DNA of 39,266 bases from an uncultured Bdellovibrionales bacterium (GCA_964501755.1 CAZCTF010000001.1:1314-40579); one strand, 5' to 3'; shown: positions 9,555 to 37,666, counted from the stretch's first letter. A program made the numbers and translations. The notes: generated from the letters alone by a model not told the origin.

Positions 9555-10037
9555 ATGAGTTTCCGAACCGAACTACATGCCGGTATTTCCAAGGCGATCG
9601 CCAAGCACCTACAGCTGCTTGAAACATCGGTCATGCTTGGTCCGCTCATGAGTGATGCCCAGAACGACGCTTGGTGCCGCACCTTCTTGCGGGCGTTGTT
9701 CGAAAGTCGAGTCTTTACCCCGGAAGATTTCCGGGAGGCGGTTACCCAGGCCGTGGGGACGTATGGCCTGGCGATGTACCAACAGGTTCTCCGTGGGGAG
9801 TATCCGGATCACGTCACTTCGCCGCAGGCGTTGGCCTATGTGCTCCGCATCGGGGTTCTCAGCCCCGGCGTGGCGAGCGGAATCCGCTTCGATCATGGCG
9901 AGACGCTGGAGCAGTTCAAGGCACGCTCCGAGGGTCTGATTGAGAAGATCATGAAGCAGCTCACGGATGGACCACGACCCCTGGCTCTCTTGCCCGGTAC
10001 GGACGCAGGAACAATCTGCGAAGGCTGTGGTCAGTAG
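9555..10037 (+). CDS. hypothetical protein (160 aa)
   Basis: ATG preceded by AGAGGAG; followed by a strong terminator; no family recognised. Confidence 0.55.
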   Translation: MSFRTELHAGISKAIAKHLQLLETSVMLGPLMSDAQNDAWCRTFLRALFESRVFTPEDFREAVTQAVGTYGLAMYQQVLRGEYPDHVTSPQALAYVLRIGVLSPGVASGIRFDHGETLEQFKARSEGLIEKIMKQLTDGPRPLALLPGTDAGTICEGCGQ

Positions 10038-14725: not shown

Positions 14726-14806
14726 CCCCGCACCATTTTTTGCAATGACCCCTCAATGTGAAGGAGAGGATCTTGTGTAGAAAATGGTGCGGGGTCTTTT
14801 GTTTTG
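14726..14806 (+). terminator. terminator-like long hairpin after rplL
   Basis: ccccgcaccatttt (14726-14739) pairs perfectly with aaaatggtgcgggg (14781-14794), followed by tcttttgtttt. Confidence 0.6.
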
Positions 14807-14831
14807 ACAAAAAATAAGAGAGGAGTAGGAT
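14804..14831 (+). promoter_or_regulatory. candidate promoter of the antiporter gene
   Basis: TTGACA (14804-14809), 16-nt spacer, TAGGAT (14826-14831). Confidence 0.3.
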
Positions 14832-14899: not shown

Positions 14900-16990
14900 A
14901 TGTCCCTCGAAGTCGTCTTGGCGGTAGCTGTTTTAATGCTCATTTCCATTGGGACATACTTTGTCGCCGGTCGCTTGAAAGTCCCGTACACGGTGCTCCT
15001 TGTCATCGTCGGTTCTGTCCTTGTTCCGTTATCGAACTTTCCCTTCTTTCATTTCATCAAGAGTTTTCAGTTGACACCAGAGCTCCTCTTTTTCGTCTTT
15101 CTCCCAGTGCTCATCTTCGAGTCGGCCTATAACATGAACATGCGGGAGATGGCCGAGAATATCCGGTCGATCTCATGGCTTTCCGTCGTCAGCCTTATTG
15201 TTTCGGCATTTTTCGTCGCATTCGCACTTTTCTGGGGGCTCAAGCTTATTGGTTTCCCGGTACCGTTCATGGCAACGCTCATTTTTGGTGCCCTCATCTC
15301 GGCGACGGATCCAGTAGCAGTCCTCGCGCTGTTCAAGGAGTTCGGCGTACCACGCCGACTCTCGCTTATTTTCGAAGGAGAGAGTCTTTTCAATGACGGA
15401 ACCTCGCTCGCCCTTTTCTTGATCGTGCTCGAAGTGGCAATCGCTGGCTTTACTGGATTCGGCAGCATCCTCGGTGGATTGTTCATGTTTACCACGATGG
15501 TCTTGGGTGGCGTCGCTTTCGGTCTTTTCATGGGATTTATCTTTTCCAAGATCATCGGAAAAGTGAAAGACAATGAACACATCGAGATCACGCTGACGAT
15601 GCTTGTGGCACATCTCACCTTCATCCTTTCTGAACTCATCTCGCACCATCTTGTCCTCTTCGGACAGGAGATTAAGTTTTCTTCGATCATCGCGACAGTC
15701 ATGGCATCCATGGTGATCGGCAACTACGGCCGTTTCAAGATCTCGCCACGTGTCGAGGAGTATATGGAGAAGTTCTGGGGCTATTTTGCTTTCGTGGCCA
15801 ACTCGCTCGTATTCATCCTGATGGGACTCCTCTTTGCCGACCTCCCAATCCAGTTCAACCATTTCATCCTCCCGATGCTCATTACCGTCGTCGTCGTGCT
15901 CGTCGGGCGCGCCCTCTCGATCTATCCGGTTGTCGCAGCGGTCAATTGGATGAAGAAAGAAAAACCGATTCCGATGAGTTGGCAGCACCTTCTCGCGTGG
16001 GGGAGTCTGCGTGGCGCGCTCGCAGTCACGATGGTGCTCCTCATCCCGGATACGCTCACGCTCCCAGGCTGGAATTATGACTTTACCGTGAAGGAATTCA
16101 TCGCAGCGATCACAATCGGCTGTATTTATTTCACGCTCTGCATCAAAGCGACCTCGATCGGGACGATGATCAAGAAAATGAAATTGTCCGACCTGACCCC
16201 ACTCGAAACAGTAGAGTACCATGAGTGCTCTGCCTTGGTCTATCAGGAAGCGCTCGAGAAACTTGAGGACTTCCATAGCAAGGGGTATGTAAAGAATGAG
16301 ATCTTCGAGCGTTTGAAGCGCGAGTATACGGAGCGCTATGAAGAGTCAGCCGCCTCTTGCAAAGCGCTTTTTGAGGCGACGCCGGCCGATATGGGCCGTG
16401 CGCTCCAGATGTATGCACTCGGCATGGAAAAGCGTTTTCTGAAGGAACTATACGTCTATCAGGAAATATCGGAATCTGAATACAAGGAAATCCTGAATAA
16501 AATTGCTATTCAGACTAATCGTGTCGAAGAAGGGCGGGAGCAGGTGACCGGCCATGCTGAGCGGTTCCAACTCGACTGGTTCGAAACGCTCGTTATGTGG
16601 TTCCGAAAGAAGTTTTACCCAAAGACCCCGAAGCAGGAGCTTCTTGAGGAGTACCGATACTATCGGGCCCAGGAAGTAGTGCTGGCCAAGGTGCTCCGAC
16701 GCCTGAAATTAATTTCAGAGCGCTTCCCCGGGTTGTATGGAGATGATACTTCGATCCAATCGGTTATTGCCATTTATGAGGGGCTCCGGGCCGATGCCGA
16801 GCGGAAGCGTGACGGGGTAGCGGTCAAAATTGGCACCGAACTTGCTTATTTGAATGAGTCTTTCGGTCGGTATGCACTTTTCAAGACCGAGGAACGGATG
16901 CTGGACGAGCTCCTCGAGAATGCGATGCTCCCGCGCAAAGTGGCGAATATGCTCTATAATGAACTGAAAGACGAGGCCTACTCGATCTAG
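14900..16990 (+). CDS. nhaP: CPA1-family (NhaP-type) Na+(K+)/H+ antiporter with large C-terminal cytoplasmic helical domain
   Basis: Multi-TM N-terminal about 430 aa with ISATDPVAVLALFKEFGVP motif; 696 aa in total. Confidence 0.85.
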   Translation: MSLEVVLAVAVLMLISIGTYFVAGRLKVPYTVLLVIVGSVLVPLSNFPFFHFIKSFQLTPELLFFVFLPVLIFESAYNMNMREMAENIRSISWLSVVSLIVSAFFVAFALFWGLKLIGFPVPFMATLIFGALISATDPVAVLALFKEFGVPRRLSLIFEGESLFNDGTSLALFLIVLEVAIAGFTGFGSILGGLFMFTTMVLGGVAFGLFMGFIFSKIIGKVKDNEHIEITLTMLVAHLTFILSELISHHLVLFGQEIKFSSIIATVMASMVIGNYGRFKISPRVEEYMEKFWGYFAFVANSLVFILMGLLFADLPIQFNHFILPMLITVVVVLVGRALSIYPVVAAVNWMKKEKPIPMSWQHLLAWGSLRGALAVTMVLLIPDTLTLPGWNYDFTVKEFIAAITIGCIYFTLCIKATSIGTMIKKMKLSDLTPLETVEYHECSALVYQEALEKLEDFHSKGYVKNEIFERLKREYTERYEESAASCKALFEATPADMGRALQMYALGMEKRFLKELYVYQEISESEYKEILNKIAIQTNRVEEGREQVTGHAERFQLDWFETLVMWFRKKFYPKTPKQELLEEYRYYRAQEVVLAKVLRRLKLISERFPGLYGDDTSIQSVIAIYEGLRADAERKRDGVAVKIGTELAYLNESFGRYALFKTEERMLDELLENAMLPRKVANMLYNELKDEAYSI

Positions 16991-17007: not shown

Positions 17008-17640
17008 ATGGAATTCTTCGGTATCGACATGGTTCAGGCGATTAAAGCGATTGGGTATGTTGGCCTTTTTGCGATTGTCTTTGCGGAAACGGGTCTCTTT
17101 TTGGGTTTTTTCTTCCCAGGAGACAGTCTGCTCTTTGTCGCGGGTGTCTTGGCGGCCCAGGGGTTTTTCTCGCTGCCAATCCTCCTCATGGTCCTTTTTC
17201 TCGCTGCCTTTACCGGCAATATGGTTGGATACTGGTTCGGTGCCTTTGTCGGGCCCAAGATTTTTACTCGCGAAGATTCGCTCCTCTTTCGTAAGTCACA
17301 TATCCTGAAGGCACAGGCATTCTATGAGCGATACGGCGGTAAGACTATCGTCCTTGCACGGTTCGTTCCGATTGTCAGAACCTTTGCACCGATCGTTGCG
17401 GGCGTGGCTCGGATGCACTACGGCACCTTTGCCTTCTTTAACCTAATCGGCGCCTTGCTCTGGTCCGTCGGACTGACCACAGCTGCCTACTATTTAGGGA
17501 CTCTGATCGAGGATATCGACCGCTACCTCCTGCCGATTATCGTGCTCATTATCTTCTTGTCGGTTCTCCCGGGGGTATTCGAATACTGGCGTGACCGGAG
17601 AGAGGCGAAAGCCAGCGGGACTGCGATGGACAAAAGCTGA
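17008..17640 (+). CDS. dedA: DedA/VTT-domain membrane protein
   Basis: FAETGLFLGFFFPGDSLLFVAGVLA and RFVPIVRTFAPIVAG motifs. Confidence 0.85.
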   Translation: MEFFGIDMVQAIKAIGYVGLFAIVFAETGLFLGFFFPGDSLLFVAGVLAAQGFFSLPILLMVLFLAAFTGNMVGYWFGAFVGPKIFTREDSLLFRKSHILKAQAFYERYGGKTIVLARFVPIVRTFAPIVAGVARMHYGTFAFFNLIGALLWSVGLTTAAYYLGTLIEDIDRYLLPIIVLIIFLSVLPGVFEYWRDRREAKASGTAMDKS

Positions 17641-17715: not shown

Positions 17716-18252
17716 ATGTATCGCATGCTGAAGAAAATTCTGACTACGCCACTCGTTGTACGGAGCGAACGAGAAATCCGCGGAACGGAGATTGAAGCGG
17801 TGGGAATAGCGGTCAAGGAGCGAGCGAAGAAGATATTCGGCGGTTCGATTGCGATTCGCGAAGTCGCTGCGGGATCGAGTAATGCCGAAGAGCAAGAGCT
17901 CACGGCGCTCACCAATGCCTACTATGACGTCGAGCGCTTCGGCGTGCATTTCGTCGCTTCGCCGCGGCATGCGGATATGCTCTTTGTCACTGGGCCGGTC
18001 AGTCGCAACATGGCTGACGGTGTCCGTCATTCATATGAGGCGATGCCGACACCAAAATGGGTTGTCGCCGTCGGAGATGGGGCGATCGATGGGGGCATCT
18101 ATCGGGACTCATATGCTGTCTATAATCGAGTCGAGGATCTCGTCCCGGTGGATTTCAAGATCCCAGGCGATCCGCCCTCGCCCATGGCTGTTTTAAAAGC
18201 TTTACTCGAGATTCTCGATGAGATCGACAGTCGGCGTACAGATAGACCATAG
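17716..18252 (+). CDS. NuoB/HycG/HyfI/MbhJ-like small subunit, cysteine-free
   Basis: DVERFGVHFVASPRHADMLFVTGPV and PVDFKIPGDPP fold motifs; cluster-ligand positions read GSSNAEE, GDGAIDGG, PGDPP; zero Cys in 178 aa. Confidence 0.85.
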   Translation: MYRMLKKILTTPLVVRSEREIRGTEIEAVGIAVKERAKKIFGGSIAIREVAAGSSNAEEQELTALTNAYYDVERFGVHFVASPRHADMLFVTGPVSRNMADGVRHSYEAMPTPKWVVAVGDGAIDGGIYRDSYAVYNRVEDLVPVDFKIPGDPPSPMAVLKALLEILDEIDSRRTDRP

Positions 18253-18255
18253 CCT

Positions 18256-20313
18256 ATGGAATTTTTTCTTACTGAAGACGCATTGTTTGCTCTCCTCGCC
18301 TCTTTTTTTATCGGGGCGATTGCGTCGCTCCTCGCTGGAGCACGAATGAATGATGGTGGTCGGATGGCAAACAGAGTCGGCCACGGAGCGGCAGCATCCG
18401 GTTCGCTTGTTGGTCTTGCGATGTCGGCGGTAGTACTCATGAATGGTCGAGGTGTCAGTTTTCAGTTCGAGAGTGCATTCCCACTCTTTGACCTCTCGTT
18501 CCGAATCGATGGCATGGGGGCGTTTTTTCTCGGTCTCGCTTCGCTTATCGCCCTCCTTGCATCGATTTACGGCTATGGGTATCAAAAGCACTTTATTGGA
18601 AGTGGATGTCTCGGGTCATACGGTTTTTTCTATAATCTCTTCGTTGGAAGCCTACTGCTCGTTCCAGTCGCGAATCAAGCGCTTTTCTTCCTCCTCGTCT
18701 GGGAAGTGATGTCACTCGCTTCATACTTCCTTGTTGTTTTTGAACGAGAAAAACCGGAAAATGTCCGGGCGGGTTTCCTCTATTTCCTCATGACACACTT
18801 CGGGACAGCATTTATCATGCTGGCCTGTCTCCTTGCCTATCAGGCGACTGGATCGTTCTCATTTGACGCATGGCGTGAGGCGTTCGGAACACTTTCTTCG
18901 GGCACCGAACTGCTCATCCTCGGCTTTGCGCTTATCGGTTTCGCGACGAAAGCCGGTCTCATCCCGCTCCATATCTGGCTTCCAGAGGCGCACCCGGCGG
19001 CCCCATCCCATGTCTCAGCACTCATGTCTGGCATCATGGTGAAGACAGCACTCTTCATGCTTTTCCGATTCTTCTTCGACTTTTTCCAGGGTGCGCGTAT
19101 TGAGTGGGGTGTCGCGTTCCTTATCATTGGATCAGTTTCCGCAATTCTCGGTATCCTCTATGCCAATGCGGAACGCGATCTGAAGCGCCTCCTCGCGTAC
19201 AGTACCGTCGAAAACGTTGGTATTGTCACGATTGCTTTTGGTGCCGGACTGACACTCTTCGCGCTCGGTCAGGAGCGAGTCGCACTTTTCGCGCTCGCGG
19301 CTGCTCTCTACCATCTCGTGAATCATGCGATCTTCAAGTCTCTTCTCTTCTTTGGTGCTGGCGCAGTGGTCAGTGCTACGGGGACACGGAATATGGAGGC
19401 CTACGGCGGGCTCTGGCGAGTTATGCCGTATACGGCGAGCTTTTTTCTCGTGGGTTCGCTTGCGATCGCTGCGCTACCGCCCTTTAACGGATTCGTGAGC
19501 GAATGGCTAACTTTCCAAGTTCTTTTTGCCGGGGTCATTGGCGCTCCGCTTGCAGTAAAGACGGCATTTCTCTTCGCCCTCGGAGCGCTCGTTTTCACGA
19601 GTGGTCTTACGATCGCTTGTTTTGTGAAAGTATTCGGTACGGCGTTTCTCGCTCGTCCGCGCACTGCCGAGGCTCGGGCAGCACATGAAGTTTCATGGTT
19701 TCTCCTTTCCCCGATGGCACTTCTTTCGGTGATCGCTCTCGGGCTCGGACTGTTTTCGTCCCATGTGCTTGCGGCATTGACGGGAGTTGTGGCGAGCATC
19801 GGTCTTACAAATCCGACGACGCTGCGTTTCCCGTTCCTCGAAATCGTTGCCTCGCGTCATGCCTTTGCGGATGTGTTGCCGCTCGCAACGATCGTCTTAC
19901 TTCTCGTCGCTTTTCTTGCAGCTGTGTTCGTCGGTATCCGGTTGGCCACACGTGGCCGCATCGTGACGATTGCTCCGACCTGGGACTGCGGGTTTCCGCT
20001 TTCCGAACGGAGCGAGATTACAGCGACGAGCTTCTCCCGGTCGCTTGTGACGATTTTCCAGGGGGTGCTCCGCCCGACGAAACAGTCGACAGTCGAATAC
20101 CATGATGAGCGGACCCGGTACTTTGTGAAGGCGGCGAGTATTGAGACTGGTCTTCGTGACGTCTACCGCGAGCGACTGTACCGTCCTGTTGATACGGCAC
20201 TCAGCTTTCTCGCGAACCGTATCCGACTGGTCCAGACTGGGAACGTGAATATGTACATACTCTATTTCGCCGTCGCGCTCGTTGGTACACTCCTCTGGGC
20301 CGCGCGCAGTTGA
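18256..20313 (+). CDS. HyfB/HycC/NuoL-like antiporter-type membrane subunit
   Basis: LVWEVMSLASYFLV, KAGLIPLHIWLPEAHPAAPSHVSALMSG, NHAIFKSLLFFGAG, C-terminal TWDCGFP extension. Confidence 0.85.
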   Translation: MEFFLTEDALFALLASFFIGAIASLLAGARMNDGGRMANRVGHGAAASGSLVGLAMSAVVLMNGRGVSFQFESAFPLFDLSFRIDGMGAFFLGLASLIALLASIYGYGYQKHFIGSGCLGSYGFFYNLFVGSLLLVPVANQALFFLLVWEVMSLASYFLVVFEREKPENVRAGFLYFLMTHFGTAFIMLACLLAYQATGSFSFDAWREAFGTLSSGTELLILGFALIGFATKAGLIPLHIWLPEAHPAAPSHVSALMSGIMVKTALFMLFRFFFDFFQGARIEWGVAFLIIGSVSAILGILYANAERDLKRLLAYSTVENVGIVTIAFGAGLTLFALGQERVALFALAAALYHLVNHAIFKSLLFFGAGAVVSATGTRNMEAYGGLWRVMPYTASFFLVGSLAIAALPPFNGFVSEWLTFQVLFAGVIGAPLAVKTAFLFALGALVFTSGLTIACFVKVFGTAFLARPRTAEARAAHEVSWFLLSPMALLSVIALGLGLFSSHVLAALTGVVASIGLTNPTTLRFPFLEIVASRHAFADVLPLATIVLLLVAFLAAVFVGIRLATRGRIVTIAPTWDCGFPLSERSEITATSFSRSLVTIFQGVLRPTKQSTVEYHDERTRYFVKAASIETGLRDVYRERLYRPVDTALSFLANRIRLVQTGNVNMYILYFAVALVGTLLWAARS

Positions 20314-20319
20314 TCACCT

Positions 20320-21294
20320 ATGACTATGGATATTCTTTTCTTCACCCTCCAAATCATCGCCGTCCCGGTCCTTTCGCCGCTCCTCGTTGGGATTATCCGG
20401 CGCGTGAAAGCGCGTCTCCAGGGACGGGTCGGTGCGGATGTCATTCAGCCGTACCGTGATCTGCGAAAACTTTTTGCTAAGGACGAAGTCATTTCAGCTG
20501 ACGCGTCATGGATTACGCGCTTCGCTCCCTATCTCATATTTTCGATCACGCTGCTTCTCGGTGCGACCGTGCCGCTTGTCACCACAGTGGCGCCGACGAT
20601 CCCGGGCTATCCTGAACTCATGCTCACGGCGACAGGTGATTTCCTTGTGATTGTTTATCTCTTTGCTCTCATGACTTTTTTTCTCGCCCTCGCCGGCATG
20701 GATGCAGGGGGCGGCTTTGGCGGTCTCGGATCGAGTCGCGAGATGATGGTTGCAGCGCTTGCAGAAGCCGGTCTTATCTTTTCGCTTCTCCCGGCATCAT
20801 TCTTGGCGGGGACGGGTCATATCCTCGATATGGTCGTACAATTGAGCAATCTGCCGATCACCACGGCGTTCCCGCTCTTTGTCGCCTTTCTTGCGTTCGC
20901 TATTGCGCTTTTGGCTGAAAATGCCCGGTTTCCGGTGGATAATCCAGCGACACACCTCGAGCTCACTATGATCCATGAGGCGATGCTGCTCGAGTATTCG
21001 GGTAAGCGGCTGGCGCTCATGGAGTGGGCGAGCGCGAATAAACTCATGATTTTCATCGCACTCGGGGCCAACGTCTTCTTCCCGTGGGGGATCGCTTTCG
21101 AATTCTCCTCCTTTCAGACCTTACTCATCCCAGCGCTCATCTTTTCAGTCAAGGCGCTAGCGTTCCTCGTCGGTATCGCGCTCGTCGAATCGCTCATGGC
21201 AAAATTCCGTATCTTCCGTGTCCCAGATCTCCTCTTTACTTCCTTTGTCCTCGGCATGATCGCAGTGGTGCTCACGGTCTTGCTCACTGCCTAA
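20320..21294 (+). CDS. HyfC/HycD/NuoH-like membrane subunit
   Basis: GMDAGGGFGGLGSSREMMVAALAE and HEAMLLEYSGKRLAL motifs typical of HycD/NuoH. Confidence 0.85.
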   Translation: MTMDILFFTLQIIAVPVLSPLLVGIIRRVKARLQGRVGADVIQPYRDLRKLFAKDEVISADASWITRFAPYLIFSITLLLGATVPLVTTVAPTIPGYPELMLTATGDFLVIVYLFALMTFFLALAGMDAGGGFGGLGSSREMMVAALAEAGLIFSLLPASFLAGTGHILDMVVQLSNLPITTAFPLFVAFLAFAIALLAENARFPVDNPATHLELTMIHEAMLLEYSGKRLALMEWASANKLMIFIALGANVFFPWGIAFEFSSFQTLLIPALIFSVKALAFLVGIALVESLMAKFRIFRVPDLLFTSFVLGMIAVVLTVLLTA

Positions 21295-21304
21295 AGTCAT
21301 CGAT

Positions 21305-21964
21305 ATGGAATTCCAATTGCTCCAACTCGCACTCTCGCTCGATCTCGCCGCATTCGTCGCGGTCGTCCTGCTTCATTTGGTGAAGAGTACGAAATACACG
21401 ATCCGTCTGTATGCCCTTCAGTCCGCCGCAGTCGCTATAGTACTTGTGATTCTCGGCGTGACTGAGGACGAGCGGGGATTTATCGCGATCGGTGCCGTTA
21501 CTTTTGTCGCCAAGGTAATTATCGCTCCGTTCTTTTTCTCTCGGCTGGTCCAGCGGTTCGGACATCTGGTGGCGAGCACCAGCTATCTTTCGATGCCGGC
21601 GACATTGGCGGTACTGCTCGGTCTCATCATCTTTTCAGCTTCTTCGGTCTTCGATCCGCTTTGGGCCGTTGCCGCCGTCACTCCTGATGTTTTTGCCTTC
21701 AATGTAGCAATGGTATTCATCGCTCTTTTCCTGCTTATCAATCGGCAGGGTGTGCTTGCCCAGATTATCGCTGTCCTGGCGCTCGAGAATAGTATCGTGC
21801 TCTTTGCGTTATTCATCGGCGTGAAACAGACATTCGCACTCGAGATGGGAATCATGTTCGATGTCATTCTCTGGATGGTCATCGCCTATGCGTTCCTTCA
21901 GATCATCTATCGGCAATTCGGGTCGCTCGATACACGCGAGATGCGCCAATTAACCGAAGACTAA
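21305..21964 (+). CDS. HyfE-like (NuoK-related) membrane subunit
   Basis: Multi-TM protein of 219 aa in the HyfE position, with LALENSIVLFALF motif. Confidence 0.7.
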   Translation: MEFQLLQLALSLDLAAFVAVVLLHLVKSTKYTIRLYALQSAAVAIVLVILGVTEDERGFIAIGAVTFVAKVIIAPFFFSRLVQRFGHLVASTSYLSMPATLAVLLGLIIFSASSVFDPLWAVAAVTPDVFAFNVAMVFIALFLLINRQGVLAQIIAVLALENSIVLFALFIGVKQTFALEMGIMFDVILWMVIAYAFLQIIYRQFGSLDTREMRQLTED

Positions 21965-21975
21965 GGCAAACTCGT

Positions 21976-23430
21976 ATGATCCTCACCCTCGTCCTCGTTC
22001 CGCTCCTGACCGCACTGCTCGTCTTCCTCTTGCCGACCAAGAAGACGCGTTTTATGGAGGCAAGCGTGATCATCGCGGCTGGCATCGAGCTGGCGCTCGT
22101 ATTCCAAGTGATCACCACGGTAGCCCTCGAGGGCACCATCCGTGGGACTGACGCTTTCGCGCTGGATGGTCTCTCAAGTTATATTGTGCTTCTTATCACA
22201 CTGGTCGGTTTTTTCGTCTCGCTGTATTCCGTCGGTTATCTCCGGACGGAAGTAGGGAAGGGGATTATCGGTCCGCGCCGTGTTCGTCAACTTTTCATCC
22301 TCCTCGAGCTCTTCCTCTTTGCGATGTATCTCGCGGTCTCGACAGTAAATCCGATCATCACGTGGATCGCGATCGAAGCGATGACTTTGCCGACAGTCTT
22401 TCTCATCAGTTTCTACAATAAACCGACCGCGACAGAGGCGGCGTGGAAGTATCTTATCCTGAATTCGATCGGTCTCCTCATTGGCCTCCTCGGTACGCTC
22501 CTCTTTGTTGCCCTCCAAGAAGACCACTCGGGCGCCACGAACTGGATAAACCTCATCACTGCCGCCTCAACCGGTCTTATTCCGGCAGAGGTCGCCAAGA
22601 TTGCTTTTGTCCTCATCTTCATCGGCTATGGGGCCAAAGTCGGTCTCGCGCCGCTGCATGCCTGGTTACCGGACGCCCATAGCAAGGCGCCCTCGCCCAT
22701 CTCGGCATTGCTTTCGGGTGTACTTCTGAACGTCGCACTTTTTGCGGTGCTTCGCTGGAAACAGGTGACTGATCTAGCGCTTGGAAGCGATCAATTCACT
22801 GGCAGCCTACTTATTTTCTTCGGAATACTTTCTGTTTTCCTTGCCGCCTTTATCATCTTTGTTCAGAAGAACTACAAGCGCCTCCTGGCATACTCGAGTA
22901 TCGAGCATATGGGACTCATCGCGATCGGCTTCGGGCTTGGCGGCATCGGGACCATCGCTGGCCTCCTTCATATGCTCTACCACGCCCTCGCTAAATCGAT
23001 GCTCTTTCTCTTGGCGGGAAATATCTTCCTCCGCTACAACTCGACGAAGTTGAAGAATGTTAGTGGCCTCATATCGGCGTTGCCGCTCTCGGGCCCGCTC
23101 TTTTTCGCCGGTATCCTCATCCTGTCGGGTCTCCCGCCGTTCGCACTCTTTGCGACGAAGTTGCTTATCCTCTCGGCAGGCATCGTTTTTTCGCCATGGC
23201 TTGTTGGCGGACTGCTCATCGCGCTCGGCGTCATGTTCTTCGGTTTCTTCCGCTTCGTCACCAAGCTCGCCTATGGACCAGTACCGGAGGGCATCGACCG
23301 CGGCGAGGCGCATTTCCTGACACAACTCCCGGTAGCACTCCTCTTCGCGACACTCCTGGTCCTGAGCTGGTATGTGCCCGAATCGCTCAATACAGTCCTT
23401 GCATCCGTGAACGAGACTCTGTCGCACTAA
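21976..23430 (+). CDS. HyfF/NuoN/NuoM-like antiporter-type membrane subunit
   Basis: IAIEAMTLPTVFL, GAKVGLAPLHAWLPDAHSKAPSPISALLSG, YSSIEHMG, YHALAKSMLFLLAG. Confidence 0.85.
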   Translation: MILTLVLVPLLTALLVFLLPTKKTRFMEASVIIAAGIELALVFQVITTVALEGTIRGTDAFALDGLSSYIVLLITLVGFFVSLYSVGYLRTEVGKGIIGPRRVRQLFILLELFLFAMYLAVSTVNPIITWIAIEAMTLPTVFLISFYNKPTATEAAWKYLILNSIGLLIGLLGTLLFVALQEDHSGATNWINLITAASTGLIPAEVAKIAFVLIFIGYGAKVGLAPLHAWLPDAHSKAPSPISALLSGVLLNVALFAVLRWKQVTDLALGSDQFTGSLLIFFGILSVFLAAFIIFVQKNYKRLLAYSSIEHMGLIAIGFGLGGIGTIAGLLHMLYHALAKSMLFLLAGNIFLRYNSTKLKNVSGLISALPLSGPLFFAGILILSGLPPFALFATKLLILSAGIVFSPWLVGGLLIALGVMFFGFFRFVTKLAYGPVPEGIDRGEAHFLTQLPVALLFATLLVLSWYVPESLNTVLASVNETLSH

Positions 23431-23441
23431 AAACCTCTCCT

Positions 23442-25028
23442 ATGATCGATCCTACTCATTTACTCCAGCGTTTCGGACTTAACGGCCTCGTACCAGTGTC
23501 GGAGGGCAGCCGTGTTCTTTTCGAGGTGAAAGCGACCGATCTGTCGCGTGTCATAATGACGTTGAAAAAGACTCACACACTCCCGCTGAAGACGATGGCG
23601 GCAAGCGATGAGCGCGCAGTCGGCCGGGGTTTTCGCATTTACTACGTCTTCGGTATTCCGAAGGAGAATGTGTTCTTGATCCCGTTCCTCTCAGTGAGTC
23701 CGGAGAATCCTTCCTTCCCGTCAATGACACCGGAAGATCAGGAATTTGCCATGTATGAGCGCGAGATACTGACGTTCTTCGGCCTTATGCCGGTCGGCCA
23801 CCCAGCGCCAGAGCGGATCACACTCCATGCTGAAAATTTTCCTAAGGATATCTATCCGCTCCGGAAAGAGTTCAAATGGAATACGGCAATTACTGAACCA
23901 AAGGAAAAGGAATGGGCAACTTTCAAAAAATACGAAGGACAGGGTGTCTATGAGATCCCAGTCGGTCCGGTCCATGCCGGCATTATCGAACCGGGACATT
24001 TCCGTTTCAGTGTTCTCGGTGAAGAGATTCTTCGCTTGGAACCGCGGCTCGGTTATGTCCACAAGGGGACGGAGAAACTTTTTGAGATGCTCGAATCAAA
24101 CCGGCAGGTGATCCTGGCCGAACGTATTTCGGGTGATAGCTCATTCCATCACGCGCTCGCCTACTGCCAGGCGATCGAATCGCTTGCAGGGGCTGAAGTG
24201 CCAAAACGAGCAACATATCTCCGGATGATCATGGCTGAACTGGAACGGCTCGCCAATCACTACAATGATCTCGCGTTTATCATGCTGGACACGGGGCTTT
24301 CCTTTGGCGGCAGTCAGGGGACGCGACTCCGTGAGCGGGTCATGCAGTGGAATGAGTGTCTTACTGGTCACCGATTCTTGCGCGGCATGCTGACACCGGG
24401 CGGCCTTTTAAAAGACATTCCGAACCATGAGTTGAATGCGCTCAAACTTGATCTCGTTGATCTCGAGAATGATTTTCTCGAAGTGATAGATGCGGTCTCG
24501 GAGAGTCTCTCGCTCCTCAATCGGCTCCAGAATACAGGGCGTTTGGAGTGGACAATCGGGGAGGATCATGGCATCGTCGGGATCGGCGCTCGAGCGATTG
24601 GTATCGAACGTGATGCGCGCGCGGATTTTCCGTATGCTGCCTATGACATGGTTCATTTCTCGGTTCCGACAGAGGATGGCGGCGATGTCTATGCCCGGTA
24701 CAGGGTCCGCGAACGCGAAGTCCATCAGTCATTCAAGATCCTCCATCAGTCGATCAATCACATCGTCTCTCTTTCTGGTCCAATCACTCTCCCGCTCGGC
24801 AATCTTGCGCCGAATGCGCACGCGGTCGGCATCGTCGAGGGCTGGCGAGGCGATATCGTCTATTTCGTTTTGACTGATGCGATGGGCGCAATCACTCGTG
24901 TCAAAGTTCGTGATCCATCGTTCCTGAATTGGCAGGTTTTTCCGTATCTTGTGACGAACGACATGGTTCCAGACTTCCCGCTCATCAACAAAAGCCTCAA
25001 TCTTTCCTATTCAGGGAATGATCTCTAG
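23442..25028 (+). CDS. fused NuoC-NuoD / HyfG / HycE-like large subunit lacking NiFe ligands
   Basis: ATG 23442 lies 11 nt after the preceding stop; GPVHAGIIEPGHFRF, RLGYVHKGTEK; the L1 motif reads ERISGDSSFHH and the C-terminus reads SLNLSYSGNDL. Confidence 0.85.
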   Translation: MIDPTHLLQRFGLNGLVPVSEGSRVLFEVKATDLSRVIMTLKKTHTLPLKTMAASDERAVGRGFRIYYVFGIPKENVFLIPFLSVSPENPSFPSMTPEDQEFAMYEREILTFFGLMPVGHPAPERITLHAENFPKDIYPLRKEFKWNTAITEPKEKEWATFKKYEGQGVYEIPVGPVHAGIIEPGHFRFSVLGEEILRLEPRLGYVHKGTEKLFEMLESNRQVILAERISGDSSFHHALAYCQAIESLAGAEVPKRATYLRMIMAELERLANHYNDLAFIMLDTGLSFGGSQGTRLRERVMQWNECLTGHRFLRGMLTPGGLLKDIPNHELNALKLDLVDLENDFLEVIDAVSESLSLLNRLQNTGRLEWTIGEDHGIVGIGARAIGIERDARADFPYAAYDMVHFSVPTEDGGDVYARYRVREREVHQSFKILHQSINHIVSLSGPITLPLGNLAPNAHAVGIVEGWRGDIVYFVLTDAMGAITRVKVRDPSFLNWQVFPYLVTNDMVPDFPLINKSLNLSYSGNDL

Positions 25029-25127: not shown

Positions 25128-25370
25128 ATGGCTTTTTCTCAATTGCCGGAGATCGCTTCCAACTTGACTCAAGAGTCACTGGACGAACAGCCCGAGTCGT
25201 CCGTTCCGTCTGCGGGCTCTGACTTCGATCCTTGGGGGCTCTCGGCCCATTTTTCAAGTGCGAGCATCTTCCCTCCCTGGGAAAAGACGGAAGGCCTACT
25301 CCGTTATTGGATGCTGCTCTGGCAGGATCAGTGGGAGCGGCAACTCCGACTCTTTGGAGTTCTACGCTAG
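25128..25370 (+). CDS. small hypothetical protein (80 aa; acidic N-terminal half, Trp-rich C-terminal half)
   Basis: Strong SD AAAGGAGGG 7 nt before the ATG; own terminator at 25397-25431. Confidence 0.55.
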   Translation: MAFSQLPEIASNLTQESLDEQPESSVPSAGSDFDPWGLSAHFSSASIFPPWEKTEGLLRYWMLLWQDQWERQLRLFGVLR

Positions 25371-25396: not shown

Positions 25397-25431
25397 CAGC
25401 ACCAGTCGAAACGATTGGTGCTGAGTTTTTT
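25397..25431 (+). terminator. Rho-independent terminator
   Basis: CAGCACCA-gtcgaaacgat-TGGTGCTG followed by AGTTTTTT. Confidence 0.65.
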
Positions 25432-25477
25432 GAAAGATGTTTGGGTCTGATCTTTGGCGATCGAGACCGCCACGCAA

Positions 25478-25510
25478 CAAAAAACCGCCCCAGAAGGGCG
25501 GTGTTTTTGT
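25478..25510 (-). terminator. terminator of the csp gene (bidirectional shape)
   Basis: ACCGCCC-cagaa-GGGCGGT with an A-run upstream and a T-run downstream; lies 16 nt beyond the csp stop. Confidence 0.7.
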
Positions 25511-25525
25511 TCGTGGAAGAACGCC

Positions 25526-25723
25526 TTAGGCGCGGGTCACATTGACCGCGGCCGGGCCCTTCTCACCGTCGACGACTTCGAAGCTGACGACATCGCCAAC
25601 CTTGAGCTCATCGAACGTCACGCCGGAGAGCTCCTTGGAGTGGAAGAACAGGTCCTTCGTCTCGCCTTCGCGAGCGATGAAACCGAATCCACGATCCGTG
25701 AGCGTCTTGATAGTACCAGTCAT
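25526..25723 (-). CDS. cold-shock domain protein (CspA family)
   Basis: MTGTIKTLTDRGFGFIAREGETKDLFFH ... FEVVDGEKGPAAVNV. Confidence 0.95.
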   Translation of the reverse strand: MTGTIKTLTDRGFGFIAREGETKDLFFHSKELSGVTFDELKVGDVVSFEVVDGEKGPAAVNVTRA

Positions 25724-27056: not shown

Positions 27057-27244
27057 GTACGAATATTAGCTGGCGTTTCGAACCAAAAATTCTGTTTTAT
27101 TTAAAGCAACTTGACGTGACAGAAGGATGGGAAATTTGGTTGGAGTATACTATAAGCAGCCGTAGTTCTTTACGGTATGCGAGTTGAGGAATCTCCCGCG
27201 GTCGGTGTCGCATGTAATTGTCTGTAATTCACGAAGCAAAATAT

Positions 27245-27733
27245 ATGGAAAAGATATTTTTGTTCCCAGTTCTTGCGCTTGCTTTTTTACTGGGGGGGGT
27301 AATGACCGTGAGTGCGGCAGGTGGATTTGATGAGTTCGGATATAATGATGGTGCCAGAATTTTTAATGGGACGGGGGAAAGCTGGTCATTAGCAAAGGGT
27401 CTGCCAGCAGACTATCTTGGAGATTATGCCAAGGATAAGTTGATTATGAAGTGGAATGCTGAATGGGATAGAGGGAATTCTGAAGGTTGGACGGATCTGA
27501 ATGGATACGATGCCTGGCTAAATAACGAATGGAACGGAAAAGTTCGGGGTGGTTCAGGTGAAACTGAAATTGTGAAGATAAAGTGGGTTGGTGCCGAAGT
27601 GTGTGAAGAAAAGTCTGCTGCTGATGGAGGGTATTGCATCTGGGGGCAGTTTGAGGTTTTGATGGATCATTACACCGGTCGTTATGGTGAATGGTTTGCG
27701 CACGCCAATCCGACAGGTTACGGTGCGAAATAA
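27245..27733 (+). CDS. secreted hypothetical protein (Trp/Asn/Gly-rich)
   Basis: Signal peptide MEKIFLFPVLALAFLLGGVMTVSAAGG; followed by a terminator. Confidence 0.65.
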   Translation: MEKIFLFPVLALAFLLGGVMTVSAAGGFDEFGYNDGARIFNGTGESWSLAKGLPADYLGDYAKDKLIMKWNAEWDRGNSEGWTDLNGYDAWLNNEWNGKVRGGSGETEIVKIKWVGAEVCEEKSAADGGYCIWGQFEVLMDHYTGRYGEWFAHANPTGYGAK

Positions 27734-30580: not shown

Positions 30581-31057
30581 TTATTTAACGAGTGTAAGTG
30601 CTGCGGAGGCATAGCGATAGACGTCCTTGCGTAAACAATGGTCGTTTTTATGCATTTTATCTAACTCTTCTTGAGTGACCCAAACGCACTCGGCATTTTT
30701 ACTCGCTTCTTCGTGAGGGTTTATGTCGCGACTGTCCGACTTTGCCACAAAAATAAAAGAGGAGTGGTCATGGTGCTCATTGATCGAATGTCTATTCACA
30801 AAGATAGGTGGCACCAAATCTTTATTGATGTCAAAGTCTTGTTTGATCCACGCGTCTGGTCCGATCAATTCTACTTTCAAACCAACCTCTTCCCAGACTT
30901 CTCGAAGTACTGCTTGGTTGATATCTTCCCCTGGATCTATATGGCCACCCGGAGCAATCCAGAAATTATACTTCTCATGTAAACGTAAAAGTACCGCGCC
31001 ATTATTCACGATATATGCATCAGCGCAGAGATCAACATAATAATTTAAGTGAGCCAT
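30581..31057 (-). CDS. NUDIX hydrolase
   Basis: Nudix box GGHIDPGEDINQAVLREVWEEVGL. Confidence 0.85.
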   Translation of the reverse strand: MAHLNYYVDLCADAYIVNNGAVLLRLHEKYNFWIAPGGHIDPGEDINQAVLREVWEEVGLKVELIGPDAWIKQDFDINKDLVPPIFVNRHSINEHHDHSSFIFVAKSDSRDINPHEEASKNAECVWVTQEELDKMHKNDHCLRKDVYRYASAALTLVK

Positions 31058-31089: not shown

Positions 31090-31131
31090 TGCTGGGGAGG
31101 ATGGGATCGAACCACTCTATTCCACTCAAAG
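31090..31131 (-). pseudogene. 3' half of a second, divergent tRNA-Gln-like sequence
   Basis: Minus strand CTTTGA-GTGGAATAGAGTGG-TTCGATC-CCATC-CTCCCCA-G-CA: starts with the same anticodon-loop CTTTGA, has a T-loop, and has an acceptor 3' strand with A72/G73 as in tRNA-Gln; no 5' half. Confidence 0.5.
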
Positions 31132-31202
31132 CTCGGGGACAGGGACTCGAACCCCGATACGCACCTTCAAAGGGTGCTGTCCTACCATTAGACGATCCCC
31201 GA
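31132..31202 (-). tRNA. tRNA-Gln (anticodon UUG)
   Basis: Manual cloverleaf: acceptor TCGGGGA/TCCCCGA (U1-A72), D stem GTCT/GGAC, anticodon stem GCACC/GGTGC with loop CTTTGAA, T stem CGGGG/CCCTG with loop TTCGAGT, discriminator G; CCA not encoded. Confidence 0.9.
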
Positions 31203-31217
31203 GTTTTGAAAAGAATT

Positions 31218-31895
31218 TTAAATACTGAGACCTTTATTGATGCCCTCTACCCAACCCTTTATCTGACGATTGAGATCGGTACTTTTTTTCACATCAATCC
31301 GGAGCAGTCCGAAATACTCTGCTCGGGTATTCTTTCGGTTCGTTTTGGGAGTATGGCTCTTAAGATATATTTTGTCGATTTTTGTCTGGAGTAGATTTTC
31401 CCAGAATTGTTGAGCCTTTGTTTGGTCTGCTGTTTGATGGATATAGATACTATACGTCAGATCAGACTTTTTTCGTAAACATATTTCCTGTATCCATCGG
31501 TTGAAAAGGGCGATCATAGCTGGGTCCGAGTTGTTGAACGATACTTTCTGCGAAACATTGTGCTGTTTCTGTTTCGTTCCTTCTGCCCAGTAGAGGACTG
31601 TACCGATGAGCCAGAGCTCCCGCTGAGAAATCCTCTTGATTTCTTTGCAGGCTGCAGAAATAAGTCGTATCTCCTTTGTAATCCGTATCTTTTTCCACGT
31701 CTCTTGGGCCTTGATTTGAGCGAGTCGTCTCCTTTCTGTGAATCGTTGCTTTTGTTCTTGAGCAAGGCCGATATCCTTCAACCAAACAGAGAGCGTTGAT
31801 TTTGAAACAGACACTTTCCGTAAGATCTCAGTATAGGAGAGACCCTGCTTTCGAAGTTTGATAGCGGCTTGTTTCTCTTCTTCTTTAGCGATCAT
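31218..31895 (-). CDS. HTH-domain protein with possible LAGLIDADG-like endonuclease fold
   Basis: N-terminal resolvase-type HTH (KLRKQGLSYTEILRKVSVSKSTLSVWLKD); motif LWLIGTVLYWAEGTK resembles a degenerate LAGLIDADG helix; AT-richer than neighbours. Confidence 0.5.
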   Translation of the reverse strand: MIAKEEEKQAAIKLRKQGLSYTEILRKVSVSKSTLSVWLKDIGLAQEQKQRFTERRRLAQIKAQETWKKIRITKEIRLISAACKEIKRISQRELWLIGTVLYWAEGTKQKQHNVSQKVSFNNSDPAMIALFNRWIQEICLRKKSDLTYSIYIHQTADQTKAQQFWENLLQTKIDKIYLKSHTPKTNRKNTRAEYFGLLRIDVKKSTDLNRQIKGWVEGINKGLSI

Positions 31896-34181: not shown

Positions 34182-34943
34182 TTAGCGTCCTTCGGCGATC
34201 TCCTTCTCGATCGCTTCCATGTCTTTTACCCACGCATCGAGCGGTGAGAGGTTGGCGCTTGCGGTCGCATCGGGGAGACTCGTCTCAGCCGATGCTTCGG
34301 TTGATTTGGTATCGGCGAGTTCTTTCTTCCAGTCGGCATTCAGGTGGCGTTCGCCGGCGCGTTTGACGGCCGGGACAGCAACGCCGAGCGCGCCCTTCTG
34401 GAGGATATTTTCGATCGCGACCCAAGAAGCGGAGAGATCGCGCGGCATCGTGACAGCGACTTCGTCACCGGGCTCGGCACGGAAGTAGGTGATAGAGGCG
34501 AGGAGGACACGGAACGGTTCACCTTCGACGACGATGTGGTAATTCCCGCTCTCGTCCTGGCTGACAATACCGATGGCGTGACGGCGATCGATCGGCCCGA
34601 TCTGCTTATAGATGAACGAGCCATCAGTCGTGATGGTAAGTTTCAGCATATCGCCCTCGACGAGTTTCGACTTGGAGGCGTAGTTGGCTGGAACCGGATA
34701 TTGTTTGCCGTCGGTACCGAGCATGATCTGGCCATCGAAAGTACCCTCGACAACCGTTCCCGTGGCATCGTCATCGGACTTTTTCGGCCGACCGGTTTTT
34801 TTCTTTCCCTCGATCTGGAGGAGCATCGCCTTGGCACCCTGAATGGTGCGCTCAGCATTCATGATCATATCCCGGAGCGCCTGAATCTTGGCGCCATTGT
34901 CCGGCGCTGACTGAAAATTTGGATCAGTAGAAGAGTCTGACAT
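34182..34943 (-). CDS. hypothetical protein (N-terminal coiled coil, beta-rich core, acidic tail)
   Basis: 253-aa ORF; perfect TATAAT (minus strand, 35003-35008) about 60 nt upstream; no family recognised. Confidence 0.6.
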   Translation of the reverse strand: MSDSSTDPNFQSAPDNGAKIQALRDMIMNAERTIQGAKAMLLQIEGKKKTGRPKKSDDDATGTVVEGTFDGQIMLGTDGKQYPVPANYASKSKLVEGDMLKLTITTDGSFIYKQIGPIDRRHAIGIVSQDESGNYHIVVEGEPFRVLLASITYFRAEPGDEVAVTMPRDLSASWVAIENILQKGALGVAVPAVKRAGERHLNADWKKELADTKSTEASAETSLPDATASANLSPLDAWVKDMEAIEKEIAEGR

Positions 34944-36388: not shown

Positions 36389-37666
36389 ATGTTCGAACTT
36401 TTTCAAAACATGGCTACCATCGCCTCAGTCGCAGGCGATGTCTGGTACTACATTATCCCGTTTGCGTTCTACCCGATTTTCATGATGCTCTGGGTCGACA
36501 GCCGGAATGGGATTTTTGGCTCAAAGATTGAATGGGTACTTCTTGAGATTATCCCGCCCAAGGAGCTCGAAAAGAGCCCTCATCCGATGGAGCTCATCTA
36601 TTCCGGTTTTGGTGGTGTGATCAAGAGTCCGACTACATTTGAAGAATATGTTGTTGGGGAATATCCGGCAAAATTCTGTCTCGAGCTGGTTTCGACCGAA
36701 GGCCAGGTCCATATGTATATCCGGACGCAGAAGTCTTTCCGCAATCTGGTGGAAGCGCATTTTTACGCGCAATATCCAAATGTCGAGATCATCGAAGTCG
36801 GAGACTATACCAAAGAGGTGCCACGAACTTTGCCGAACAAGGATTGGGACCTATGGGGGACCGAGTTCAAACTCTTTAAGCCCGACCTTTATCCAATCCG
36901 TACCTATAAATTCTTCGAGGAATCTGTGACAGGGAAAATGCTTGATCCCTTGGCGGGCCTCATTGAGACAATGGGCAAACTCGGCCCAGGCCAACATCTC
37001 TGGCTACAGTTTTTGGCGACGCCGATCAAAGAAGACTGGGGACCGAAGAAGGGTCAAGCAACGATCGAGGAATTTCTCGGACATGAGGAAGTAGCGAGTG
37101 GAGGGATTTTTTCTCGCGTTTGGCATGATCTGGTGGATGTTTTCCGTAATATCTTCTCAGGCCTTTTGGGCCAGGAGTTGACCTGGACGAGCCTTGCCGA
37201 AGCCGCCAAAAGCGAAGAGCAGCCGATCGAGTTTCGATTGACTCCTGGGCAGAAAGATATCTTGAAAGCGCTCGAGAGCAATATCGGCAAGCCGATGTTT
37301 AAGATCAAAATGCGCCACGTATATCTCGGGAGAAGAGAGCATTTCTCGAAAGCGACCGGTGTGTCAGCATTTATCGGTGCAATCAAACAATTCAACGACA
37401 TCAGTCTAAATAGTATGGTACCAGACGATCTCTCCAAGACGTATGCGTCATATATTATGGTGGATCAACGCACGCGGTACCGTCAGCGTCGGCTCTTCCG
37501 TCGTTACATCACGCGGGATTCCGATCCGGGGGAGAATTGTTTCTTGTTTTCTTCCGAAGAGCTGGCCACGGTCTTTCATCTCCCGGATATGCAGGTACTT
37601 GCCCCGGCTCTCTCTCGTGTCATGACCAAGCGGGGTGGCGCGCCTAATAATTTGCCGGTACAATGA
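36389..37666 (+). CDS. membrane-anchored hypothetical protein, probable partner of the downstream ATPase
   Basis: Single N-terminal TM (VWYYIIPFAFYPIFMMLWV) then a soluble region of about 380 aa; 59 nt upstream of the T4CP-like gene. Confidence 0.65.
   Translation: MFELFQNMATIASVAGDVWYYIIPFAFYPIFMMLWVDSRNGIFGSKIEWVLLEIIPPKELEKSPHPMELIYSGFGGVIKSPTTFEEYVVGEYPAKFCLELVSTEGQVHMYIRTQKSFRNLVEAHFYAQYPNVEIIEVGDYTKEVPRTLPNKDWDLWGTEFKLFKPDLYPIRTYKFFEESVTGKMLDPLAGLIETMGKLGPGQHLWLQFLATPIKEDWGPKKGQATIEEFLGHEEVASGGIFSRVWHDLVDVFRNIFSGLLGQELTWTSLAEAAKSEEQPIEFRLTPGQKDILKALESNIGKPMFKIKMRHVYLGRREHFSKATGVSAFIGAIKQFNDISLNSMVPDDLSKTYASYIMVDQRTRYRQRRLFRRYITRDSDPGENCFLFSSEELATVFHLPDMQVLAPALSRVMTKRGGAPNNLPVQ

Follow-up and report, generated by a model that had tools for sequence, protein, structure and literature searches.

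A predicted cofactor-free branch of the Ehr family of hydrogenase- and complex I-related complexes

What does a complex built like hydrogenase 4 and respiratory complex I do when the ligands of its redox cofactors are gone? The question is raised by a six-gene operon on the + strand at positions 17716-25028 of a stretch of DNA of 39,266 nucleotides (GCA_964501755.1, CAZCTF010000001.1:1314-40579), deposited under an uncultured Bdellovibrionales bacterium and called here, at its full length, the window. The best matches of both subunits of the soluble cap, the small and the large, are in assemblies of Candidatus Moranbacteria and other Patescibacteria (candidate phyla radiation, CPR), and by these matches the host is a Candidatus Moranbacteria bacterium. 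The complete 1.2-Mb Moranbacteria genome CP064975.1 (locus L001 among the related loci, which carry L numbers) is syntenic with the window from L10/L7-L12, across the operon, as far as the cold-shock, GFA and HAD genes. Judged by ligand alignments and a large-subunit tree, the operon encodes a complex of the Ehr (energy-converting hydrogenase related) type, neither a hydrogenase nor a complex I, as a preliminary description of the window had proposed, and belongs to a monophyletic Ehr sub-family without the NiFe site, without the small-subunit [4Fe-4S] cluster and without a ferredoxin-like subunit. Ehr complexes, relatives of group 4 hydrogenases without the NiFe cysteines, are of unknown function (PMC6349859, PMC7304191, PMC10284858), and Jaffe et al. 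described in 2020 a monophyletic group of NiFe-less Ehr large subunits from CPR (PMC7304191); to speak of an undescribed system, as the same description did, was therefore too strong.

The six open reading frames (ORFs) are separated by intergenic gaps of 3, 6, 10, 11 and 11 nt. The first encodes a NuoB/HycG/MbhJ-like small subunit of 178 aa (17716-18252; an alternative start at 17725 gives 175 aa) that matches Pfam PF01058, Oxidored_q6/NuoB, at 1.9e-23. It is followed by a HyfB/HycC-like antiporter-type subunit of 685 aa with a HycC-like C-terminal extension (18256-20313; NCBIfam hydrogenase 4 subunit B, 1e-186), a HyfC/HycD/NuoH-like subunit of 324 aa (20320-21294; PF00146 NADHdh/NuoH, 2.7e-38), a HyfE-like membrane subunit of 219 aa whose C-terminal half is NuoK-like (21305-21964; NCBIfam hydrogenase 4 membrane subunit HyfE at 9e-15, under the model cutoff, and a weak PF00420 match) and a HyfF-like antiporter-type subunit of 484 aa (21976-23430; NCBIfam hydrogenase 4 subunit F, 2e-119), so that genes 2, 4 and 5 bear the NCBIfam names of hydrogenase-4 subunits B, E and F. 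The last gene (23442-25028) encodes the large subunit, a fused NuoC-NuoD/HycE-like protein of 528 aa with matches to PF00329 (Complex1_30kDa) and PF00346 (Complex1_49kDa). Its mechanical ORF opens at 23196, within the HyfF-like gene; we place the conserved start at the ATG at 23442, since the homologues are all about 528 aa long and begin MxDP... ORF coordinates, Pfam and NCBIfam thus agree with the gene identities and the 3-11 nt spacing first given for the operon.

Cofactor ligands of the soluble cap

The small subunit contains no cysteine. In a HMMER alignment with MbhJ (6cfw_J), with which an alignment to Nqo6 (2fug_6) is consistent, the positions of the four [4Fe-4S] cysteines are taken by S55, E58, G122 and D152, and the cysteines that hold cluster N2 in complex I are replaced in this NuoB-like subunit, while the motifs SPRHAD, VTGPV and PGxPP around the lost ligands are intact. 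The replacement residues are themselves conserved: among 120 small-subunit homologue clusters E58 and D152 occur in 120/120 and G122, which D121 adjoins, in 119/120. Over the whole former cluster site (positions 55, 58, 121, 122 and 152) the relatives read S-E-D-G-D in one branch and T/D-C-D-D-D in the other, with at least three carboxylates in each variant. Such a pattern resembles a hard-cation or proton site and not random filling.

The large subunit has undergone a corresponding change. Aligned with HycE (7z0s_E), its L1 motif reads RISGDS (in RISGDSSFHH) in place of RVCGIC and its L2 motif NLSYSG (in NLSYSGNDL) in place of DPCYSC; the NiFe ligand positions are S230, S233, S522 and G525, and the pattern Ser, Ser or Thr, Ser, Gly is kept in 120 large-subunit homologue clusters. 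The quinone ligands His38 and Tyr87 of Nqo4 (T. thermophilus numbering) correspond, in an alignment to 2fug_4, to I182 and G231. Because both the NiFe and the quinone ligands are replaced, the large subunit is that of neither a hydrogenase nor a complex I-type quinone reductase. It terminates in ...SGNDL, immediately past the L2 position and without the C-terminal extension that a protease would cleave, and neither of the two cysteines that it contains (C242, C306) is conserved. Cys stays at or below 50% in every column of the 120 large-subunit homologue clusters and at or below 10% in the 120 small-subunit clusters. By these alignments no cysteine-ligated redox cofactor can bind in the soluble cap. 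The absence of cysteines at the N2 and NiFe positions, for which alignments to MbhJ, HycE and Nqo4 had been proposed as the check, is borne out, and the complete loss of Cys ligands from the soluble arm is conserved across hundreds of relatives rather than being a one-off decay.

Four of the six subunits have their closest solved relatives in E. coli Hyc (7Z0S) and Hyf, with matches in the Protein Data Bank (PDB) to HycE at 3e-68, HycC at 4e-65, HycD at 1e-41 and HycG at 2e-23, the last in sixth place for the small subunit, where MbhJ comes first; the HyfE-like gene has no PDB sequence match. The AlphaFold2 models of both cap subunits are confident: that of the large subunit (predicted template-modelling score 0.85) has HycE as its top PDB fold match (TM 0.88), and that of the small subunit has a predicted local distance difference test score of 83.9. 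Confidence in the large-subunit model is low at residues 160-207 and 506-528, in which the most conserved motifs reside. Because these segments contact the small and NuoH-like subunits in homologues, the monomer model is uninformative on pocket geometry, and the PDB copy searched holds no Ehr structure.

Unlike Hyc and Hyf, the operon is devoid of NiFe ligands, of the small-subunit cluster, of HycF/HyfH, HycB/HyfA and formate dehydrogenase (FDH), with no hyp or hycI gene nearby and no protease-removed extension on the large subunit; both features of a group 4 [NiFe]-hydrogenase, the L1/L2 cysteine pairs and the four small-subunit cluster cysteines, are absent. With complex I it shares homologous NuoB, C, D, H, K and L/M/N-type subunits and the same antiporter chain of Glu, Lys and His; it differs in having two antiporter-type subunits only and in lacking NuoEFG, NuoI, N2 and the quinone ligands. 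We confirm that the 39-kb window contains no ferredoxin-type, NuoI/HycF, NuoEFG, FDH or hyp genes, and neither the window nor the flanks of the related loci yielded hyp maturation or endopeptidase genes. Likewise, NuoE/F/G and NuoI were found neither in the window nor within about 10 kb of any related locus whose small subunit scores as lacking the cluster cysteines (Cys-less loci), and none of these, the locus in the complete 1.2-Mb genome included, has an ORF with a CxxCxxCxxxC motif within the operon or next to it. The adjoining Fe-S or electron-input subunit that would have spoken for a redox enzyme is thus missing from more than 20 related loci. The absence of a NuoI-type subunit, on which the preliminary description laid weight, stands as an observation but is not special, as many cluster-bearing Ehr operons also do without one.

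Place within the Ehr family

The operon combines a NiFe-less group-4-type large subunit with small-subunit, HyfB-, HyfC/NuoH-, HyfE- and HyfF-like genes, the set by which an Ehr complex is defined. It shares with other Ehr operons the fused NuoCD-like large subunit without either CxxC NiFe motif and the signatures S-G-D-[ST] and S-Y-S-G, and its large subunit is placed by the tree within the Ehr radiation and separate from the true group 4 NiFe enzymes. How the small subunit compares can be seen from a scan of GTDB species genomes with two conserved large-subunit motifs, which gave at least 80 loci (600 pattern matches listed). Among the matches listed, NiFe-less large subunits occur in Nitrospira, Rokubacteria, Acidobacteria, Verrucomicrobia, Thaumarchaeota, Firmicutes and others, and all four small-subunit cysteines (CCCC) are kept in 66/80 scored small subunits from 83 surveyed loci. 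Some of these small subunits are fused to, or followed by, a NuoI-like 2x[4Fe-4S] module, and for many no NuoI-type partner is present. Loss of these cysteines is limited, again among the matches listed, to the loci nearest the window, and about 25 of 150 best representatives (50% clustering) lack at least three of the four. An apparent exception is a Chloroflexota locus with a NiFe-type large subunit (CCCC) whose small subunit (L082:11507-12337) scores as ECED yet contains 12 cysteines; the score probably reflects a misaligned, extended and divergent protein rather than real loss.

In a neighbour-joining tree of 86 large subunits, distance-based, rooted on the CCCC (NiFe) sequences and, being without support values, approximate in its topology, the Cys-less loci form one clade and the window is nested among NiFe-less sequences. 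The clade has two branches named from the four former ligand positions, SEGD/TEGD, to which the window belongs, and xCDD, and is sister to CCCC operons of the same gene order, small subunit first. Its CPR members are Moran-, Davies-, Sacchari-, Falkow- and Magasanikbacteria; the others are metagenome-assembled genomes labelled Firestonebacteria, Fibrobacteria, Thermoleophilia, Endomicrobiales and Bdellovibrionales, and a 3-Mb contig. What sets the clade of the window apart from other Ehr complexes is the missing small-subunit cysteine cluster, with SEGD, TEGD or xCDD in its place, a conserved acidic triad, and the small subunit as the first gene.

The survey also turned up variant arrangements. 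Two Nitrospirota loci (L041:4760-19829 and L076:1-14012) hold two complete Ehr operons in tandem, with SSSG and STSG large subunits and CCCC in both small subunits, and the Cys-less operon of a Fibrobacteria locus (L009) is followed by a second operon, a more distant paralogue. Fusions of NuoB and NuoI with two CxxCxxCxxxC motifs and 260-350 aa (L038, L040, L050, L051, L056, L058-L061, L075) belong to Ehr operons of Firmicutes and Acidobacteria, and in four loci (L014, L021, L068, L071) the genes of the large and the small subunit flank a separate ferredoxin gene (about 110-130 aa).

Ehr complexes are said to have been named since 2005 or 2013, in work by Coppi and, in BBA, by Marreiros and co-workers. 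A literature search, within whose scope Marreiros et al. 2013 and Coppi 2005 did not fall, returned no description of an Ehr small subunit without its FeS cluster. Thus, while Ehr complexes and the CPR clade of NiFe-less large subunits are known, the added loss of the small-subunit cluster seems to be unreported; what goes beyond the 2020 report is a sub-clade with a lost cluster, a conserved carboxylate triad, purifying selection and intact proton-path residues.

Selection, ion path and gene neighbourhood

All six genes are under strong purifying selection. In comparisons with three relatives, whose large subunits are 95%, 89% and 80% identical to that of the window, the ratio of nonsynonymous to synonymous divergence (dN/dS) lies between 0.02 and 0.10 in every gene, and ribosomal protein L10 gives 0.02-0.03 in the same comparison. 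A decaying hydrogenase or Ehr remnant in a reduced genome, which the loss of all cofactor ligands, a split HyfF gene in L001 and many fragmented genes in L089 could bring to mind, is hardly credible against such values: full-length, syntenic genes recur in more than 20 loci from several phyla at 50-95% identity, the residues that replaced the ligands are invariant, and the fragmentation in L089 hits neighbouring genes of the contig too, as with frameshift errors. Pseudogene decay is ruled out by the dN/dS values together with the full-length synteny, and the concern that orthologues would prove frameshifted is settled in favour of selection. Of the two damaged loci, L001:8548-9995 has HyfF split into two ORFs in the complete Moranbacteria genome, and at L089:2500-8000 almost every gene is fragmented, neighbours included; the damage in L089 fits frameshift errors in an error-prone assembly, probably one made from long reads, and such errors may also lie behind the single split in L001. 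Loci of this kind could pass for pseudogenised operons. A different irregularity appears against the closest relative (window 18256-21964, L088:4815-8523), where synonymous divergence is 0.08-0.17 in the HyfB-HyfC-HyfE segment and 0.4-1.0 in the flanking genes. Given a divergence so far below that of its surroundings, the segment suggests a recent recombination tract inside the operon.

Are the residues that carry ions through the membrane kept as well? The HyfB-like subunit has the complete NuoM/HycC-type charged set (E150, K232, H239, K263, H357, K361 and E416), invariant in all 13 loci scored Cys-less in the residue-conservation comparison. The HyfF-like subunit keeps E134, K221, H228, H336, K340 and K395, and its position in transmembrane helix 8 is occupied by Asn, the residue found there in most relatives; in the loop and channel of the NuoH-like subunit D128, R140, E141, E149, E200, D207, H212, E214, H219, E220, E225, E235 and K241 are kept; and the HyfE-like subunit has conserved membrane charges at E161, D186, D209, K70 and R147 (67 loci). 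Throughout the Cys-less clade the Glu, Lys, His and Asp residues of the antiporter-type, NuoH-like and HyfE subunits are invariant or nearly so, and they match those of FeS-containing Ehr and of true NiFe relatives. The cap is no less constrained. FeS-containing and FeS-less Ehr share 87 large-subunit positions conserved at 90% or more; near the old active site they include E183, H186, D232, H237, R469 and D527, of which D232, between the former L1 cysteines, is an acidic gain specific to Ehr. At the 90% level no position of the large subunit switches with the loss of the cluster, and in the small subunit only D152 does.

The genes around the operon point to ion gradients. Directly upstream, on the + strand, lie a gene for a Na+/H+ exchanger family protein of 696 aa (14900-16990; PF00999, 1.6e-54) and, 17 nt further on, one for a DedA/VTT-domain membrane protein (17008-17640; PF09335), which ends 75 nt before the small-subunit gene. 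Besides the window, L001, L087 and L088 have this pair immediately before the operon and in its orientation, as does the distant L090, with a large subunit 54% and an exchanger 50% identical to those of the window; in L084-L086 DedA stands upstream without the exchanger. Altogether DedA occupies the same position in L001, L084-L088 and L090, where the large subunits are 54-95% identical to that of the window and DedA itself is about 59-64% identical in L084, L085 and L090. In Moranbacteria DedA thus accompanies the operon as a conserved accessory, perhaps on the same transcript. The exchanger carries a side feature of its own: Pfam covers residues 13-425 only and the C-terminal 270 or so residues have no family match, and the 50% identity in L090 extends over residues 205-690, taking in this C-terminal part.

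In five other loci (L006, L064, L077, L089 and L091) the genes atpG, atpD and atpC, encoding the gamma, beta and epsilon subunits of ATP synthase, lie upstream on the same strand, the gap being smallest in L091 (62 nt) and largest in L064 (about 1.1 kb). When the ORFs that flank the operon in 15 Cys-less loci were clustered all against all, these three families were the only recurrent ones; the search for a conserved redox neighbour therefore ended with ATP synthase families, and no neighbour is universal across the Cys-less loci. One Firestonebacteria locus has a multihaem cytochrome c552 gene (NrfA-like; L008:2661-4292) directly upstream on the same strand, an arrangement seen in L008 only.

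How far the transcription unit reaches was approached by a consensus scan, whose promoter and terminator calls are no more than that and whose promoter match carries no functional weight. The best sigma-70-like match of the region (TTGACA-16-TAGGAT, 10/12; 14804-14831, + strand) lies upstream of the exchanger, and terminator-like hairpins follow the large-subunit gene at 25397-25502: one has a 12-bp stem and a run of T on the + strand (25397-25423), the other is bidirectional (25484-25502) and common to the end of the operon and the convergent cold-shock gene. Since the best promoter-like match precedes the exchanger and strong terminator-like hairpins close the large-subunit gene, the unit may comprise eight genes with the exchanger first; the tight array of six genes seen at the outset stands, its status as a single six-gene operon less so. 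Positions 25474-25530 are about 90% identical in L001, L087 and L088, and the stretch between the large-subunit gene and the terminator region is poorly conserved. A candidate seventh subunit, an 80-aa ORF at 25128-25370, was rejected, as it is not homologous to the 84-85-aa ORFs at that position in L087 and L088. Scans with Rfam and for tRNA genes found nothing within or beside the operon.

The other genes of the window are housekeeping genes only, encoding among others GatB, DnaE (DNA polymerase III alpha), DnaX (tau), RNase HII, NusB, RNase III, SMC, L10, L7/L12 and a cold-shock protein. Between 30000 and 32000 the G+C content drops to 0.435, against about 0.53 elsewhere; this dip contains, all on the - strand, a NUDIX gene (30581-31057), a tRNA-Gln gene (31131-31202) and the gene of an HTH_23 protein (31218-31895), and may be an insertion beside tRNA-Gln. 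Several sizeable ORFs have no Pfam match (9555-10037, 27218-27733, 34182-34943, 36389-37666 and 38065-38520). The one at 27218-27733 encodes a 171-aa protein with a hydrophobic N-terminal segment; another no-Pfam protein, of 425 aa, is encoded downstream of a sigma70_r4/HARE-HTH gene, and its counterpart by position in L084 carries DUF8128.

Possible working modes and what they would mean

A question remains, what would such a complex do? From sequence and gene context, on which any mechanism proposed here is based, the reading we favour, and hold as a tentative one that falls somewhat short of probable, is that of a redox-independent cation/proton exchanger or gradient converter with an Mrp-like role. 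The HyfB-, HyfF-, NuoH- and HyfE-like subunits would still provide the usual chain of charged residues by which protons or cations cross the membrane, the NuoH-like subunit would join the soluble cap to the membrane arm, and the cofactor-free cap would be kept as a gate or ion-binding module, not as an electron wire. Candidate pockets in the cap are the former NiFe pocket, which would be lined by Ser, Asp and Glu, and the carboxylate triad E58, D121 and D152. In a fermentative cell the complex could manage H+ and Na+ gradients together with the F-type ATPase, a Na+/H+ exchanger of the cation:proton antiporter (CPA) type and DedA. Redox-independent ion translocation, which the preliminary description had put forward, is a reasonable inference, strengthened because the proton-path residues are intact and the neighbouring genes deal with ion gradients.

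Precedents exist for such a use of the scaffold. Mrp antiporters (7QRU, 6Z16, 7D3U) employ NuoL/M/N-type subunits independently of redox chemistry, and the HyfB-like subunit finds MrpA (7qru_A, 9e-40) and MbhH (6cfw_H) among its best PDB matches and MrpD (2e-28) as a significant one. Common to both systems are two PF00361 subunits and the NuoK-like half of HyfE. Mrp, in contrast, a set of seven subunits (MrpA-G) that has no peripheral arm, is without NuoH-, NuoB-, NuoC- and NuoD-like subunits and has MrpB/E/F/G, which are absent here (the MrpE/F/G families were not detected with Pfam or NCBIfam), so the complex is not a member of the Mrp family, and the likeness is one of possible working mode. 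In Pyrococcus Mbh and Mbs (Mbx; 6CFW, 6U8Y), MbhJ is the best match of the small subunit and MbhH/M/L and MbsH/M/L are significant matches; Mbs shows that a hydrogenase scaffold without H2 chemistry can still drive ion translocation. These complexes, unlike the one described here, have three [4Fe-4S] clusters, ferredoxin input and a full Mrp-like Na+ module.

Several points weigh against the exchanger reading. The cap is as constrained as the membrane subunits, though a plain antiporter needs no cap and Mrp has none; given this constraint and the large-subunit positions shared with FeS-containing Ehr, the cap may well have a specific task for which an antiporter model does not account. In about half of the Cys-less loci no exchanger, DedA or ATP synthase gene adjoins the operon. 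The survey was selected by motif and drawn from the matches listed, which biases both the motif conservation and the proportions quoted, and the search for redox partners covered the window and the flanks of the loci.

If the cap does have a task of its own, one possibility, which we consider unlikely but worth keeping in view, is gradient-driven non-redox chemistry or ligand sensing in the former NiFe pocket, with a small substrate or effector bound there. The membrane arm would couple ion flow to binding or reaction, as DAB and Cup do with CO2 hydration, or the ligand would gate the flow; DabAB and cyanobacterial NDH-1 with CupA use PF00361-type subunits without redox input at that module. 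Such a role would account for a cap under purifying selection as strong as that on the membrane arm, for a pocket lined by conserved Ser, Asp, Glu, His and Arg, for the 87 conserved positions and for the gain of D232. However, no candidate substrate suggests itself, Pfam and NCBIfam find no catalytic motif beyond the hydrogenase and complex I scaffolds, no conserved neighbouring enzyme points to a pathway, and most of the conserved positions are kept in true NiFe relatives too, where they may be scaffold or proton-path residues. Somewhat more doubtful still is a cofactor-free coupling module in which ion binding replaces the redox trigger of the antiporter-subunit stroke. Here the buried triad E58/D121/D152 (D121/D122/D152 in sister lineages) and the Ser/Asp/Glu pocket would bind and release a cation or proton, and the change of charge at the former cluster site would drive a long-range stroke of the antiporter-type subunits.

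Two further explanations we regard as improbable, each to a similar degree. The complex might still be an oxidoreductase that receives electrons through a ferredoxin, an FDH module or a flavoprotein encoded elsewhere, or through a cofactor not ligated by Cys. The literature offers the hypothesis of an FDH-linked Ehr (FDH-Ehr) in Margulisbacteria/Saganbacteria and Geobacter, the large subunit is nearly identical in FeS-containing and FeS-less Ehr, and the partner search was confined to the window and flanks. But a clusterless small subunit leaves no wire from a docking partner to the large-subunit pocket, neither cap subunit has a conserved cysteine column, the NiFe and complex I quinone ligands are all absent, and no Fe-S ORF adjoins the operon in any Cys-less locus. 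CPR genomes, moreover, are generally without quinones and respiratory chains. The complex might alternatively serve as a regulated leak, a channel or a membrane scaffold, that is, a passive or gated conduit for H+ or Na+ without stoichiometric exchange that aids, for example, ATPase-driven energisation of the membrane or pH homeostasis. The intact ion-path residues and the ATP synthase genes adjoining the operon in five loci agree with this. Two complete antiporter-type modules with all coupling residues exceed what a leak needs, however, it has no known precedent, and by sequence it is indistinguishable from an antiporter. Mechanisms outside this list share what probability remains, a minor portion of the whole.

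Were the complex just a large antiporter, the result would be a modest one; if an ion or ligand in the cap drives the stroke, the mechanism would be new. In the event that ion binding does act as the trigger, the complex would represent a new class of secondary transporters with the architecture of complex I, and Ehr complexes in general would perhaps not be oxidoreductases, because the large subunit is essentially identical in FeS-containing Ehr. This bears on the function of a family that is widespread in nitrifiers, Acidobacteria, Rokubacteria and others, and on how ultra-small CPR bacteria without respiratory chains maintain membrane potential and Na+/H+ balance alongside the F-type ATPase. 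In complex I, how a local event in the soluble arm is coupled to proton pumping tens of ångströms away is still debated, and a redox-free variant with the cap, the NuoH-type junction and the proton-path chain under selection offers a clean system for the role of cap and junction. The operon represents a cofactor-free branch of the Ehr family, of interest as a natural experiment on complex I-type coupling and on the bioenergetics of CPR bacteria.

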